Sequence record: SRR22947727_1365
Reading direction: 5' to 3' (one strand)
Length of the DNA: 46,560 nt
In this document: positions 2,662-18,618 of the stretch, piece by piece
How the letters are laid out: each line of letters begins with the position of its first letter
Position numbering within the stretch: position 1 is the stretch's first letter
Position numbers and translations under genes: made by a program
Notes under the pieces: model-generated
What the model was told of the DNA's origin: nothing
The model's input: only the letters and a program-made list of their open reading frames with translations
The model's database searches: none

Positions 2662-3099
2662 ATGCAACCACTAGATAAAGAAACTTTATTCTCTATCTTC
2701 GAGCAAGGAGATGAAGAGATCTACCAAGAACATAAGATAACGGGAGTTATGAATAATCCGTATGTACTTATGGGAATGGTAATAAGAGGAATGGAGAATT
2801 GGCATCTAATGGACATAATGTACAAAAGATCGTATAAGGAACAGTATGAAAGAGTAAGAGATGTTATCAGAGTAAAGTATATGACTAGGTTAGTAGGTTA
2901 TCTAGATAAAATTGACCCTACGAAGTTTGAAACTGTTTATACTATAGGAGATTCCTATGATAGCAAAACTGTTATGAGTGTATTAAATGAACTTATATAC
3001 TTTTTCGAATCTAAGGAGATGTATGAAAAGTGTGCTACTATAAAAACGTATATAGACTTACTTTCTCATAAAATAATTGAAAAAGAGTTACTAAGATAG
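2662..3099 (+). CDS. Hypothetical protein with UVR-like C-terminal helical hairpin
   Basis: 145-aa ORF; EMYEKCATIK resembles the UvrB/C motif. Confidence 0.7.
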   Translation: MQPLDKETLFSIFEQGDEEIYQEHKITGVMNNPYVLMGMVIRGMENWHLMDIMYKRSYKEQYERVRDVIRVKYMTRLVGYLDKIDPTKFETVYTIGDSYDSKTVMSVLNELIYFFESKEMYEKCATIKTYIDLLSHKIIEKELLR

Positions 3100-3130
3100 T
3101 TGCCTAGGAACTTAATTATTCGTATCTTTA
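3098..3130 (+). promoter_or_regulatory. Early/host-sigma promoter, AGTTG-N20-TATCTT
   Basis: AGTTG 3098-3102, TATCTTTA 3123-3130. Confidence 0.75.
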
Positions 3131-13171: not shown

Positions 13172-13535
13172 GAATATACAAATCAAAAAAACAGTTTACG
13201 GGAAGGATGACTACGGTAAAGTTATCGATAGAAGCTTTAGTAGCTTTAAAAAACCTGTAGCTGAAGCTGTAGAAAAAACAGTAGAACAGTTCTTTAAAGA
13301 TTATGAAGAACTTTACTTAGAAATCCCTGTTCAAGGAGATGAACAATCACACGAGTACTTATCATTAAGAAGTGGAGATCTAATTTCAATAAACGAAATA
13401 GAACAAGATATACAGCCACTATTAGATGAAATAGCAGAATTAAGACAGCAGTTACTTGATTCTCAAAATGAAATATTAGATCAAAGATTAGAAATAGCAA
13501 ACCTTATAGCAGCAAACACTGGTGGAGAAAGTTAA
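13164..13535 (+). CDS. Hypothetical coiled-coil virion protein
   Basis: 123 aa with C-terminal heptads; overlaps both neighbours. Confidence 0.75.
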   Translation: MGKNIQIKKTVYGKDDYGKVIDRSFSSFKKPVAEAVEKTVEQFFKDYEELYLEIPVQGDEQSHEYLSLRSGDLISINEIEQDIQPLLDEIAELRQQLLDSQNEILDQRLEIANLIAANTGGES

Positions 13536-16500
13536 TTACATAGTAACTAAAGCCGATATTGGTAGTACATCCTTAGAAGAAAAGGATGCGATCCTTGTTG
13601 GACCTTTCTCAATAAACAATACCTTTAATGACAGTAAAGATTTTATTGATCTTCATATATACTCACCAGAAGGAACATTACTCAAATCCCAGCTAAACTA
13701 TAAAAACAGTACTCAGTCTACCCTTTCAGCAGGTGCCGGTAAAGAAGGAGCATCTAACTTACAATTAGAACCACACAAGGATGCAATTGCGAATGGCTTT
13801 CAGAATGGAGATATAAGGTTAACTTATAACTTCTTTACTGACTTATTACACTTAAGAAAAACACCTCCTAGATTCTTTATTGAAAATATATCAGGAGATA
13901 GAACAGAAATACAATTACTTACTTTAGAGCTAACCGATGACGAATTAATACAATCAGTTGCCGAAGTAAGGTCCAAATTAGAAAATCAATCATACTTTTC
14001 TGAATTCAAGGTATCATTTGGAAATAATGATATCAGTACCGGTATTAATATAGACTTAGTAGAACACAAAGAAGGTCAATCCGTTATTGTTAAACTACTA
14101 AAACCTCTACCTAAAAAATTCGGTAAGAAAGATATATGTAACTTACTAGAAATAGTAGCAGACACTACTGCATTTGATATTAAACTTCAAGAAGTTGAAG
14201 ATAAGATCACTGTACCCTTTATTAAAGGTCCTAACTTTACTGCAGGACTAGATAATACTGCTAATAATCCAACAGAGTTTTACAACTTTGACGAATTATT
14301 TAGTTACCCAGTAACCGGCTCTTACTACGAACTCTATTCTCTTTTTAACGAAAAAGGAGCTCAAATTAGTATAGACCATTCTGATTATGGAGATTTCATA
14401 CACTTTTCTTCCGCTGAAGAAAGGCTTAGAAACTTTAAATATAAACTTGACTTAATAGATAGTTACGATAGTAATAGATCAACGGTATCATCTACGAACT
14501 ATACTAACCTAGGAGCATCAGGAAGTAAAGAATACTATGATGGGCTGATAAAAGGAATCGTAGATAATTTTGATCATTATGATAGATACCTCTATTATGA
14601 AAGCGGCTCTAACTCATGGCCTAAATCTAATAAGTTACCTCCTTATACAAATCAAATAAGTTCAACCTCAGAGGCAAGGACTTGGTTTGAAAAACAGACT
14701 GAATTAGCATCTAATTTTGATATCACAAATTACGATGTACTTACTAACTCTATACCTACTTACCTAAGAGAAGATAAAACAAACGAACCTCTCTTAATGT
14801 TTGTACATATGCTTGCACAGCATTTCGATAACTTATGGATATACTTTAAAGCAGTTTCTAATAAGTACGATGCAGATAATAGATTAGACTTTGGTATATC
14901 TAAAGACTTAGTTAGGTCTGCTATAGAAAGTTTCGGTATCAATGTTTATAACGGTAATAAAAATTTAGAGAATTTATTTGCTTCTTTTAATGGAGAATCC
15001 TACACATCTGGAAATCCTAATGAAATTATCAACCACTACATGCAGATTACATCTGGAAGTGGATTGGAGCATCTACAACCAATGCCTGCTGATAACTATC
15101 AAAAGGAGATATATAAAAGAATATACCACAACATACCTTTACTTACAAAAGCAAAAGGTACCAACAGAGGTTTAAGGGCACTTATTAACTGCTTTGGTAT
15201 ACCAGATAACTTGCTTACTATTAAACAATTTGGCGGTACTGCTATTGATGGTAATAGGCATTTTTCTACTCAACAAGGCGTTACTAGTTCACTAGATAAG
15301 ATCAGATTAGACAACTCAGGAAGTTTAGTTTCCGGTAGTACCTTATCTCTCTACAGTTCAGTTGTCGATAGAGTATATAAGTATTCTGACGATCAACATA
15401 CAGTAGAGGTAGGCTTTGACATATCAGATACAACAAATGACCTTATCCAAGCTAGAGTTAGCGGTAGTTTCGATTACGATAACTATATTGGAGACCCTAG
15501 AGATGCTAAACAATCTAGCTATAATTCACTGGATGAATTAGCTGAAAAAATCTTTACAGACGAACAAGAAGGTAGTATATACAACTACTGGAATGGAATC
15601 CAAAAAGTATGGCAAGATGCTGATTGGGATTGGAATGCTACTCCTTTTGAAGCATTTAGACAGACAGGGGACTTTATAAGACTTATTAAATTCTTTGATA
15701 ACTCTATATTCAAAGCAGTAAAAGATTTTATTCCTGCTCGTTCTAATGTGAACACTGGAGTAATAATTAAACCTCACATGCTTAATAGAAGTAAAATTAA
15801 GCAAGTAGAAGTTAGTTACGAACATACCATATATACAGGAAGTATAAAAATTGACCCTATCACAGGATCAAGTGCCGGTGCTTTCGATATGACACCTTTA
15901 ACACCTTTTACAACTAATCACTTACAGAGTGTTATTTCTCCTTTAGGTTTAGTCCATAGAAATGTAACAGACGAATCTCCAAGGTATACAGGAGAGTTTA
16001 GCGGCTCTTTATTAGTTGCTTCAGATGGTGAATTAAATAAAGGTAACCCTTTTAAATCACAAGCACAACCTATTGCTCAATTTACATTAAGAGCTTTTAA
16101 CTTCTCATTACCAATACCTCTTGCTTGTGATGTGATACTTACTATAACTAAAGTAGGAGAGTTCTACAGATTTACTCCTGTTGGACCTGGGTTAGTAGGA
16201 ATTACATATCCAATAACAGTAGGTAATAGTTCAACACCAATAAGTAGTTCAGTTGATTATGATCTATACCAATTTATTACTGCTAATGCTACACCAACAT
16301 ACCCTTACTACTTTGAAGGATGGTTTGATGGATCACAAGAGACAGATACGTTAATTCAAACATCTTCTGTTTTAACTATATATGAAGATACAAACACAGA
16401 CATAGACCATTACTTTGCTCACTTTAGTACAGAAGCAGCAAACAGAATAGTATATTCCTTCACTACTAATTATCCAGATGGAACTGCAGATGGAACTATG

Positions 16501-17151
16501 AGAGAAGGAGTCTATGGATTATTTGATTCCGTTCAATTAAATTACCCAAGCACAATACCTGCTACTGGTAGCTTCCAACATACTCAAAACTGGAACCTAT
16601 ATAGTTCACTAGCAGCAGAAGCAGTAGACGGATATAACACTTATCCATTCTTAGGCTGGTATAACTCAGCCAACAACCTACTTACTACAAGTAGTATGAT
16701 TACTATTACCTCCGGTTCATTTGGCGATACCACAGCATTCTATGCTAGATATACTCCTGCTAAACATTACTTTACGTTTAGAAACTGGTTTAGAGTAACT
16801 CATGATGGTAGTAAGATAACAGATGATGGAACTTATCAATTATTCCAAAAACGAAATAACGAGCAACTAATTACTCAGACAGCTGACAATGTAGTTAATA
16901 GCTACTTCTTAGCAGAAGAGTATAGAGCTTCTAATAACTACTATAAAGCTGCATACTATATAGATGTAGAGATAGATGGTACTTTAGGAACTGGTTATAC
17001 ATATAACTTTACGTTCCCTGAGAATACTAACCCTGATTACCACAGAGCAGTTAATTTTTATACTAACATACTAGATACATATTTATATGAAAGAAACCTA
17101 GATGGTTACCACCATAGTCCTAACACAGGGACTTTACCGGCGACTATCTAA
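13522..17151 (+). CDS. Large baseplate/tail structural protein (gp7-like region; exon 1 is 13522-17121 if the intron splices)
   Basis: 1209 aa; KAKGTNRGLRALINCFGIP wedge-type motif; two F.GW[YF] (InlB/Listeria-Bacteroides-like) repeats near the C-terminus. Confidence 0.75.
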   Translation: MEKVNYIVTKADIGSTSLEEKDAILVGPFSINNTFNDSKDFIDLHIYSPEGTLLKSQLNYKNSTQSTLSAGAGKEGASNLQLEPHKDAIANGFQNGDIRLTYNFFTDLLHLRKTPPRFFIENISGDRTEIQLLTLELTDDELIQSVAEVRSKLENQSYFSEFKVSFGNNDISTGINIDLVEHKEGQSVIVKLLKPLPKKFGKKDICNLLEIVADTTAFDIKLQEVEDKITVPFIKGPNFTAGLDNTANNPTEFYNFDELFSYPVTGSYYELYSLFNEKGAQISIDHSDYGDFIHFSSAEERLRNFKYKLDLIDSYDSNRSTVSSTNYTNLGASGSKEYYDGLIKGIVDNFDHYDRYLYYESGSNSWPKSNKLPPYTNQISSTSEARTWFEKQTELASNFDITNYDVLTNSIPTYLREDKTNEPLLMFVHMLAQHFDNLWIYFKAVSNKYDADNRLDFGISKDLVRSAIESFGINVYNGNKNLENLFASFNGESYTSGNPNEIINHYMQITSGSGLEHLQPMPADNYQKEIYKRIYHNIPLLTKAKGTNRGLRALINCFGIPDNLLTIKQFGGTAIDGNRHFSTQQGVTSSLDKIRLDNSGSLVSGSTLSLYSSVVDRVYKYSDDQHTVEVGFDISDTTNDLIQARVSGSFDYDNYIGDPRDAKQSSYNSLDELAEKIFTDEQEGSIYNYWNGIQKVWQDADWDWNATPFEAFRQTGDFIRLIKFFDNSIFKAVKDFIPARSNVNTGVIIKPHMLNRSKIKQVEVSYEHTIYTGSIKIDPITGSSAGAFDMTPLTPFTTNHLQSVISPLGLVHRNVTDESPRYTGEFSGSLLVASDGELNKGNPFKSQAQPIAQFTLRAFNFSLPIPLACDVILTITKVGEFYRFTPVGPGLVGITYPITVGNSSTPISSSVDYDLYQFITANATPTYPYYFEGWFDGSQETDTLIQTSSVLTIYEDTNTDIDHYFAHFSTEAANRIVYSFTTNYPDGTADGTMREGVYGLFDSVQLNYPSTIPATGSFQHTQNWNLYSSLAAEAVDGYNTYPFLGWYNSANNLLTTSSMITITSGSFGDTTAFYARYTPAKHYFTFRNWFRVTHDGSKITDDGTYQLFQKRNNEQLITQTADNVVNSYFLAEEYRASNNYYKAAYYIDVEIDGTLGTGYTYNFTFPENTNPDYHRAVNFYTNILDTYLYERNLDGYHHSPNTGTLPATI
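17080..17087 (+). promoter_or_regulatory. Late promoter motif TATTTATA, just upstream of the intron 5' splice site
   Basis: Exact motif inside the 3' end of the CDS, ending 34 nt before the splice site. Confidence 0.45.
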
Positions 17152-17387
17152 TAATAAGTCCGATTTAAACTGGGTGAATTGCTGGAAACTCTTTAGAGCT
17201 TTAACTACCAAAGCGTAACAATGTTAAAGATTAGACAATCAGCAGCCAAGCTACAAGCCATCTTGTAGAAGGTTCAGAGACTACTGGAGGGAAAATGGGT
17301 TCCCTTAATAACCAGAATTAGCGCCCAGCAGGAGTAATCCTGATGATATAGTCCGATCTTCATGGAGACATGAAGCTAACATAAATG
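17122..17387 (+). ncRNA. Group I self-splicing intron (IA-like, ORF-less, 266 nt)
   Basis: P AATTGCTGGAAA 17177-88; Q AATCAGCAGCC 17237-47; R GTTCAGAGACTA 17272-83; S ATGATATAGTCC 17343-54; P1 AGTCCT/GGGACT with U.G; P3 CTGGGTG/CGCCCAG; P5a CTTTAAC/GTTAAAG; P6a CTACAAG/CTTGTAG; P7.1; P8 and P9 GNRA hairpins; terminal ...CATAAATG. Confidence 0.93.
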
Positions 17388-17426
17388 GTGATACAGAAAG
17401 CGGAAAGCGGACCTTCGGGCGAGTGA
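17388..17426 (+). CDS. Predicted exon 2 of the 13522 gene (VIQKAESGPSGE*)
   Basis: In frame after ligation CCT^GTG (exon 1 is exactly 1200 codons). Confidence 0.45.
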   Translation: MIQKAESGPSGE

Positions 17427-17493
17427 GTAGGTGAGTAGGTGTATAGGGCTTCGGTCTGGCGGATTAAATACCATTACAAACGAATAAAGTAAG

Positions 17494-18594
17494 ATGACTG
17501 AATTAGAATTCAAGAACACTAATCCTACCTCGTACGACGAGGGTAATGCTAACCTGCTTTACAGCAGTAGTATAGGCACAGGTTCGTATGAACTGCCGGA
17601 AGGGAAGTATGGAGCTTCAGGAAGCTTTAGTTATGATCAAGTATTGAGTAATGCACAAACAGGCGGCAATGGTATGCAGTATTATTTAGCCGATGCATTA
17701 TTCCCTCCTTATAGAGTTTTAGGGCTTACTATTCCTTTTAATAGCAGTAATAATGTTTCACTAGAACAAACATTATCTCAAGTAACAGGAATTAAACTAA
17801 CAATGGGTAATTTGCCTATCGAATTAGTAACAACAGAAATTTCTAAACAGGCAGGTTACTTTTTTATACGTACCGCCCCTACAGATGTATTTTCTTTACC
17901 AGTAGCGATTGATGCAGCAGGAACTCCATTAGATTTTAATGTAGAGTTTATATTTGCTCCATACTTAGCTGATAAGTTTAGTAATAGTGACTTCAACGCA
18001 CTTATAGGAAATGCTAGTACCAACTCAACTAGTACTGTTGCCATGGTAGTTGATAGAGCTGGAGACCAACTTAGACCTACTAATTTAGGAGCAATCATCT
18101 CTCAAACAGCAACAAAAGCATCAGTTCAATACAGTAACTATACTACAACAGGTTGGACTAACGCCAGGTACCATGGGTCTAGTTTAAACAGTGGAAGTAT
18201 ATTCGGAGAGGATCCAGCAATGACTTTAAAAGTATTTCAAGGTTCAGTTCACCCGCTTGATGCTTCTGCTAAAACTTTAATCAACGCAGTAGAACAAAAT
18301 TCTGATGATATTTATTACAACGATAGTAGATTGCCAACAGATTATGTATCTGCTAGTGTGTTATATGTTACATCAAGTACTTTCCCATCAACCCGTCCTG
18401 CTAACTACGGTACTAAGGTAGGTGGAGTAATAAACTATAATAGAGGGAGTACATTATACCAAGCAACAGGAAATAGATTTGTGAGGATTGTTGATAAAAA
18501 AATACTTGCAACTGACATAGCTACAGTATTTACTACTAACGAATTTGGAAATATAATAAAAGCAGTAACCGGTAACAGTGGATCTGCATCATAA
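17494..18594 (+). CDS. Virion structural protein (tail/baseplate region)
   Basis: 366 aa, S/T/G/N-rich, within the structural cluster. Confidence 0.75.
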   Translation: MTELEFKNTNPTSYDEGNANLLYSSSIGTGSYELPEGKYGASGSFSYDQVLSNAQTGGNGMQYYLADALFPPYRVLGLTIPFNSSNNVSLEQTLSQVTGIKLTMGNLPIELVTTEISKQAGYFFIRTAPTDVFSLPVAIDAAGTPLDFNVEFIFAPYLADKFSNSDFNALIGNASTNSTSTVAMVVDRAGDQLRPTNLGAIISQTATKASVQYSNYTTTGWTNARYHGSSLNSGSIFGEDPAMTLKVFQGSVHPLDASAKTLINAVEQNSDDIYYNDSRLPTDYVSASVLYVTSSTFPSTRPANYGTKVGGVINYNRGSTLYQATGNRFVRIVDKKILATDIATVFTTNEFGNIIKAVTGNSGSAS

Positions 18595-18618
18595 CTTAAT
18601 TAAAACATATATAATAGA

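Follow-up and report, generated by a model that had tools for sequence, protein, structure and literature searches.

Group I introns follow an established two-step chemistry by which, in nature, they excise themselves from the gene that carries them. Engineered constructs running in the order guide, ribozyme, insert, and target U circularize the insert, and a simple P1 helix suffices for this (PMC11394858). The element reported here lies in a 46,560-nucleotide (nt) stretch of phage DNA, sequence record SRR22947727_1365 (the window; all features below are on its plus strand), between a large structural gene and the gene behind it. It opens with an internal guide at the edge of a group I core, and the strand that the guide pairs with stands behind the core, at the far end of a short variable domain. 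On balance, it is more likely than not a circularly permuted group I ribozyme of a P2-less phage intron class, opened in the loop L1 and encoded in that order in the DNA.

The ribozyme core and its guide/substrate helix

RF00028 (group I intron) is the sole family to reach threshold in an Rfam gathering scan of the whole window, at positions 17075-17375 with 89.3 bits (gathering score, 50; E value, 1.3e-21), and the group I core recognized in a first-pass annotation of this DNA is thus genuine. By Rfam and RNAalifold the core spans 231 nt (17157-17387) and lacks P2. It is composed of P3 (17170-76/17322-28), P4 (17180-85/17239-44), P5 (17190-92/17233-35), P5a (17199-205/17223-29), P6 (17245-47/17271-73), P6a (17251-57/17262-68), P7 (17279-83/17349-53, placed by eye from the sequence and the Rfam alignment), an intact P8 (17287-93/17300-06), an extra hairpin (17329-42), P9 (17358-64/17369-75), and J9 (17376-86), followed by omega-G at 17387, which marks the predicted 3' splice site at 17387/17388.

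We aligned 23 distinct members of the family (alignment A3), with duplicates and incomplete copies removed and with the copy of Flavobacterium phage immuto included; the family therefore has at least 23 distinct members and is probably larger. RNAalifold recovers P3, P4, P5, P5a, P6, P8, and P9 from these sequences, and 15 of 61 pairs have compensatory changes on both sides, for example, at columns 28/184 (UA in 19, CG in 4), 58/84 (UA 13, CG 9), 111/122 (CG 17, UA 6), and 219/230 (UA 16, CG 7). Both omega-G and J9 are invariant in all 23 members. The window and the immuto copy are 84% identical over 17245-17387, and the similarity stops exactly at 17387; a 3' splice site further downstream (before AUUAA...) was considered and rejected on this ground and for want of a supporting pairing.

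Every member opens its core with (A/G)GUCC-N, 5 to 7 nt before P3 and without P2, and carries N-GGAU-(U/C/A) behind the variable stretch that follows omega-G. In all 23 members this guide, AGUCCN, pairs with NGGAU/U behind the core (the slash marks the predicted cut), and RNAalifold predicts this long-range helix de novo from the alignment, pairing columns 14-19 with 328-333. In the window the guide is A-G-U-C-C-G at 17157-17162 and the substrate strand is C-G-G-A-U/U at 17460-17465, with 5'-splice-site-type cleavage predicted between U17464 and U17465 and with G17158 as the wobble partner of U17464. The G.U, U-A, C-G, and C-G pairs are each present in every one of the 23. The pair following these is GC in nine, AU in eight, and UA in five, with one gap in the alignment, and is paired in all 23 when anchored by hand; a seventh pair forms in 11 members and is of four types. 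The pair across the wobble is AU in 21 members, GC in immuto, and AA in one, and is thus formed in 22 of 23.

Overall, 92.5% of the 159 helix cells in the alignment are paired, and the covariation among these related sequences is 0.239, compared with 0.063 ± 0.018 in shuffles, none of 500 of which reach the observed value; sliding the partner strand by one to three columns leaves at most 48.7% paired. The occurrence of G-C, A-U, and U-A at a single pair needs at least two double changes, kinship notwithstanding. A wobble that stays fixed while the Watson-Crick pairs around it covary marks a reactive P1 and not a plain closing stem.

The substrate strand of the window is 73 to 78 nt behind omega-G and not at the ordinary position of a 5' splice site in front of the guide. 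The predicted site is the first of its kind behind omega-G in all 23 members, and only four have a comparable site within 200 nt upstream of the guide. The order guide, core, 3' splice site, insert, and 5' splice site is common to all 23. We note that seven members (L019, L034, L040, L042, L049, L055, and L057) have a second site fitting the guide, UGGAU or AGGAU, within the downstream gene and 119 to 160 nt behind omega-G; it is weaker than the main site, and in several members it lies within two codons, ATG GAT, that belong to a conserved ...DEMDRN... motif.

The same guide and partner are found in ordinary P2-less phage introns of the same core class (L171, L168, L116, and L141), in which the P3-P4 region and guide position are identical over a 26-nt pattern. 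The guide AGUCCNN lies directly before J/P3 in these introns, and the partner NNGGAU/U, with the same G.U wobble, stands 8 to 14 nt in front of it. The layout is TTGAGGAT, TAGGTTTC, and AGTCCTCA in L171; TTGCGGAT, TAAGTTTA, and AGTCCGCT in L168; and ACAGGAT, TGGGATGT, and AGTCCTGT in L141, and L116 has the same strand with a 14-nt loop. Their 3' ends share the form ...UAACA...UG, with ...AACTG directly before exon 2, and their exons are coding and joined in frame. Joining in L171 gives ...SIREDLED followed by IIYNISPTRTPF, within what we take to be a capsid-like gene; in L141, presumably in a replicative-helicase-like gene, the guide-pairing strand ACAGGAU ends ...SGNIEQD, and exon 2 opens with ADVIGFLYRDDYY. 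From their sequences we read AGUCCNN as the guide and NNGGAU/U as the 5' splice site of this intron class, with a short L1 and no P2.

The helix of the window family, with its invariant G.U, is homologous to the P1 of these ordinary relatives. In the window family, in contrast, the substrate is 18 to 80 nt behind omega-G, and nothing coding is joined. Since guide and strand are shared, the window element would belong to the same intron class, opened in L1. In three further ordinary relatives (L105, L108, and L169), an open reading frame (ORF) of at least 246 codons stops one base before the guide, and hence inside L1; it may code for a homing endonuclease, and it indicates that L1 of this class tolerates large insertions.

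Distribution and genomic setting

The element follows a structural ORF of 1,209 codons (13522-17151) ending in ...TGTLPATI, with its TAA stop at 17149-51, 6 nt upstream of the GUCC of the guide, and it precedes an ORF of 366 codons (17494-18594). Neither of these ORFs nor the two behind them match a Pfam or PHROG family. The last ~130 residues of the 1,209-residue protein form a C-terminal domain that is the constant companion of the ribozyme (alignment A1). Six homologues of 1,209 to 1,215 residues (P0001-4 and P0008-9) keep the ending ...T[GS][TS]LPxxI, and many homologues of ~1,079 residues are without the last ~130. Among 12 viral loci found through the downstream protein, five (L002-L006) have both the group I match and the G-rich stretch behind it, and in the other seven (L007-L013) the protein is short, the next gene starts at once, and there is no ribozyme. 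The C-terminal domain, the ribozyme, and the variable stretch (together 16744-17493) are thus present or absent together.

Searching with the C-terminal domain adds ribozyme-bearing loci in which it is only 36 to 38% identical; RF00028 matches seven of the eight added loci scanned, and the eighth, L024, is cut off. The match has 89.3 to 93.9 bits in 12 related loci. A 40-nt P7-P8 pattern is present in 34 viral stretches and a guide-P3 pattern in 32, the latter with no matches among bacterial and archaeal genomes (one genome per species). In other lineages the motif (F)FxxI(I/L)xxYL(Y/L) always precedes the ribozyme, and immuto gene 225 ends with a similar motif. The upstream ORF stops 28 to 78 nt before the guide in 14 of the 23 aligned members, leaving an A-rich spacer without a hairpin.

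In the immuto copy (L001), P5 is shortened, the Rfam score is below threshold, and the variable stretch is only 18 nt long and followed by a terminator-like hairpin. A "hypothetical protein" (immuto26A_226, positions 2988-3122; MW353175.1) is annotated over its core. Against cultured phages, tblastn with the downstream protein gives only a partial match of 35.6% in immuto phages, elsewhere in their genome, and nothing in the nearest record, a fragment of 28.5 kb, matches 16000-18600. Judging from phage relatives and habitat, the hosts may be Bacteroidota.

Compared with 15 members of other lineages, the window has a core that is 89 to 96% identical, and the neighboring proteins of those 15 barely align (local matches of 20 to 128 residues at 22 to 50%), a pattern suggesting that the core has been spread or homogenized among phages by recombination. 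A recombination linker between divergent phages is one form of the reading in which core and guide/partner helix are kept as structure only, the helix doing no more than close the fold, with neither cleavage nor a circle; a protector of the upstream message at its 3' end and a decaying selfish relic are others. The constant position behind the same C-terminal protein motif and the terminator-like hairpin after the immuto copy fit this, as does the lack of read evidence for cutting. Four RNA runs (X5, X6, X9, and X10 of 20 listed) hold close and distant relatives as assembled contigs, which cover mostly the core and have no joints; contigs drop rare forms and their ends are unusable, and they are uninformative on transcription, cutting, and circles. 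Structure alone gives no reason, however, for a G.U pair in 23 of 23 members while its neighbors swap Watson-Crick pairs, for homology to the reactive P1 of spliced relatives, or for an omega-G segment that is invariant as well, and we regard this explanation as unlikely.

Sequences flanking the core

The first-pass annotation had placed a 5' splice site at 17121 and proposed an intron (17122-17387) within a structured noncoding RNA of roughly 110 to 130 nt, transcribed from a promoter-like TATTTATA at 17080 and folding only after ligation. Its view that neither a protein gene nor a tRNA or rRNA hosts the ribozyme as an ordinary intron is borne out, and a tRNA scan of the window finds none. 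The splice site itself does not hold up. The codons behind 17121 encode T[GS]TLP, which is kept in nine sequences from at least four lineages with synonymous codons (ACT, ACG, or ACC for Thr; TTA, TTG, or CTA for Leu), and this synonymous variation indicates selection on the protein and a true C terminus. The hairpin AGUCCU/GGGACU (17116-17133), formerly taken as P1, lies in this coding sequence and is restricted to the seven members of the window lineage, being absent from the other 16. Two relatives, L005 and L023, have C-G where a U.G is needed at the supposed splice site. In favor of such an intron, the window lineage has, by eye, the P1-like AGUCCU/GGGACU with U.G at 17121/17128, a P2-like helix, and a P10-like GUG/CAC pairing, and L005 (AGUACC/GGUACU) and L023 each show one compensatory change in the hairpin. 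The AGUCCN that would serve as a P2 strand is nevertheless the guide in relatives. The P2-like helix, CGG(cg)ACU/AGUCCG at 17138-17162, is likewise confined to the window lineage and competes for the guide; together with the hairpin it may regulate the ribozyme or have arisen by chance within coding sequence.

Other parts of the noncoding RNA model fare no better. Its junction hairpin, CUGU-GAU-ACAG, is complete in the window only, with at least one pair failing in the six lineage relatives, and the part GU-GAU-AC lies wholly behind omega-G and so needs no ligation. The ATGGT (17102-06) and ACCAT (17470-74) that were to close the domain are both present, but ATGGT occurs within 130 nt upstream in only seven of the 23 members, all of the window lineage, and the ACCAU-type tail is much more widespread and pairs with the segment around omega-G. 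A stable fold of the ligated RNA was expected, and the fold is worse than that of shuffles (z, +2.61). With a 5' part that is coding, a junction hairpin that is not kept, no covarying pairs, and no Rfam family, a structured RNA as host of an intron is very improbable.

The octamer TATTTATA is present at 17080-17087, as had been noted, within the codons for the conserved Y-L-Y. The window holds 19 copies of it where 11.75 ± 3.72 are expected, a number that 5 of 100 shuffles attain and that chance can account for; 16 of the copies are on the coding (plus) strand, and eight of these 16 lie 3 to 33 nt before ORF starts, at 2649, 6560, 9442, 18619, 29362, 36185, 37947, and 45758. Each of the 23 listed family loci that have the YL[YL] motif (L049, with YLA, is unscored) encodes its Y-L by TAT TTA, a greater invariance than codon usage predicts (0.30 per lineage, or ~7e-5 for eight lineages). 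The invariance and the copies before ORFs, both of which lend the noncoding RNA model some support, make a role at the nucleotide level possible, and from its sequence setting TATTTATA is a candidate phage promoter or initiation motif; such a role is compatible with a permuted ribozyme, too.

Behind omega-G, the window has a G-rich, noncoding domain of 77 nt (17388-17464), formally the "exon" between the 3' and 5' splice sites. The higher G+C content reported for this stretch is confirmed (0.49 to 0.53 in 80-nt windows across 17360-17479, compared with 0.31 to 0.41 in the coding flanks), and the stretch is mainly G and purine rich, with a GC skew of +0.38 to +0.44. It contains two small UUCG hairpins, CCTTCGGG at 17412-17419 and GGGCTTCGGTCT, the latter present as described though at 17447-17458, one base from the 17446-57 given earlier; the tandem GTGAGTAG is also there. 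GAAAGCG and GUGAGUAG are each present twice (17396-17441). These repeats are single in L002, L003, and L005, and L006 has a duplication of its own; such lineage-specific duplications indicate that the stretch evolves by slippage.

The peptides read after omega-G in the seven window-lineage sequences are VIQKAESGPSGE, VILKADLRASK, VIRKRTFGRVTSV, VIRKRTSGRASSV, VILKTENGPSRECLT, VILKADLRASN, and VIRKRTPGRASSV, each ending at a stop. They are 11 to 15 residues long and have only V-I in common, because of frame-breaking indels. The frames behind omega-G thus differ, and VIQKAESGPSGE is not a conserved peptide, so that the result which the first-pass annotation had named as refuting its noncoding reading was not obtained; judged from these sequences, with the frame broken in six close relatives, 17388-17464 is noncoding. 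This bears on a reading in which the element is an ordinary intron near the 3' end of a tail-like gene, with splicing swapping the last nine codons for VIQKAESGPSGE. The 5' exon would end on a codon boundary, with the ORF running on for 12 codons, but the new peptide is not kept, six close relatives have other frames and lengths, and the tail to be replaced is the conserved one; such an intron is hardly credible.

The domain looks like a weakly constrained spacer. Its 77 nt fold at -11.4 kcal/mol compared with -17.87 ± 2.48 for shuffles, 199 of 200 of which fold at least as well. The fold z scores of 16 other members range from -1.83 to +2.20, with none below -2, and RNAalifold on the seven window-lineage sequences gives seven pairs, none with changes on both sides and all in conflict with P1. 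Local hairpins do persist with altered sequence between the close pairs L019/L025, L038/L055, and L074/L082. A helix closing the domain was dropped as a claim, beating shuffles in only two of 20 cases, although minimum free energy folds show one in L019/L025, L038/L055, L042, and L074/L082. An Rfam E-value scan of 17376-17500 returned no family, the single match (E value, 2) being a chance one.

The domain is followed by a tail (17465-17493) that doubles as leader for the gene behind it. Its UACCAUU (17469-75) is able to form a helix with AAUGGUG (17384-90), a segment that spans the 3' splice site. A tail/omega-G helix of 5 to 8 bp, taken over 20 nt behind the predicted cut, can form in all 23 members and is matched by at most 5% of shuffles in 12, seven of them of the window lineage. 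This helix might keep the 3' splice site close to P1 or, alternatively, mask it.

Predicted back-splicing and comparison with known systems

In the RNA, the guide (17157-62) is followed by the core (P3 to P9), omega-G (17387), the variable domain (17388-17464), the substrate (17460-65), the tail, and the start of the next gene at 17494. For a permuted ribozyme, the two-step group I chemistry and the engineered constructs that share its order lead us to predict the following course. In the first step a guanosine, supplied as GTP, would attack after U17464 and cut the transcript behind the tail-like gene and ahead of its downstream neighbor, separating two messages. The new 3'-OH of U17464 would then attack behind omega-G, freeing 17388-17464 as a circle of 77 nt. 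The upstream message would be left with the folded ribozyme at its end, and the downstream message would begin one added G before U17465. Because the domain appears to be a spacer under weak constraint, the cut is likelier than the circle to be the useful product, although the hypervariable circle could itself be functional, for example, as a decoy or regulator.

The ribozyme might also cut without making a circle, by the first step alone at 17464/65 or by hydrolysis alone behind omega-G, and so act as a processing site that separates the messages. This explanation shares all of the evidence from the guide/substrate helix, and it accommodates a P10-like pairing that is not conserved, a poorly conserved and weakly folded domain of 18 to 80 nt, and a tail that can sequester omega-G. 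Omega-G and J9 do not vary among the 23 members, however, which is to be expected only of a 3' splice site in use, and engineered constructs of this order complete both steps (PMC11394858); we consider cutting alone quite unlikely.

Several observations weigh against a permuted ribozyme that back-splices. The 23 sequences are related, and their covarying cells are not independent events, there being about eight lineages by guide/partner combination. By eye, there is no conserved P10-like pairing of the first bases of the domain with bases before the guide. Structure in the variable domain is not convincing (z, -1.83 to +2.61 in 17 sequences), and neither is the helix that would close it. The tail pairing across omega-G would have to open for the second step, and the window lineage has, upstream, a P1/P2-like fold in competition for the guide. 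The 18-nt domain of immuto is followed by a terminator-like hairpin and not by a gene, so that freeing a downstream message is not the universal role. The support is from sequence and covariation.

More tentatively, we propose as possible a fuller picture: a family of marine phage contigs in which a group I ribozyme permuted in L1 has a fixed place in the structural gene block and back-splices to release a small circular RNA that evolves fast, at once cutting the late message and setting the 5' end of the message for the next gene. Permuted group II introns and the engineered tools discussed below would thereby gain their first natural counterpart among group I ribozymes. We found no description of natural DNA-encoded permuted group I ribozymes in the literature searched; subscription journals and supplements were outside its scope, and a prior description is possible. 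If correct, this picture would explain intergenic group I matches in phages, misannotated as broken introns or, as in immuto, as invented small ORFs.

Among described systems, the GIR1 lariat-capping ribozyme is likewise related to group I and acts at a site behind its core, where it generates the 5' end of a message lying downstream, but it does so with a 3-nt lariat and a fold of its own (PMC2219692). The window element differs in having RF00028 as its only Rfam family at gathering thresholds and a standard G.U P1, and is not of the GIR1 type. Closer in arrangement is ND5-717, a natural group I intron with a permuted intron-exon arrangement that yields circular, exon-containing RNA; there, nearly the whole mitochondrial genome lies in P8, the permutation occurs at the level of a small primary transcript, and the exons brought together are protein coding (PMC6545197). 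The window element is not of this type either, since its break is in L1, its P8 (17287-17306) is intact, its permuted order is in linear DNA, and its "exon" is short and noncoding.

Engineered permuted intron-exon (PIE) designs and, above all, self-targeting-and-splicing (STS) designs have the order of the window element, namely, guide, ribozyme, omega-G, insert, and target U, and two transesterifications free their insert as a circle, as is predicted here (PMC11394858). These designs are man-made from Tetrahymena, Anabaena, or T4 introns, whereas the window element is natural and conserved over many phage contigs, with an activity that is predicted; if active, it would provide a natural scaffold for circular RNA production that is compact (~231 nt) and lacks P2. 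The nearest natural parallel is with bacterial permuted group II introns, which are also permuted self-splicing ribozymes that back-splice to circles, although they belong to another ribozyme class and use branching or hydrolysis chemistry (bioRxiv 10.64898/2025.12.30.696962). Should the prediction hold, the group I fold would have been reused in viruses for RNA processing or circle formation, in parallel with these permuted group II introns.

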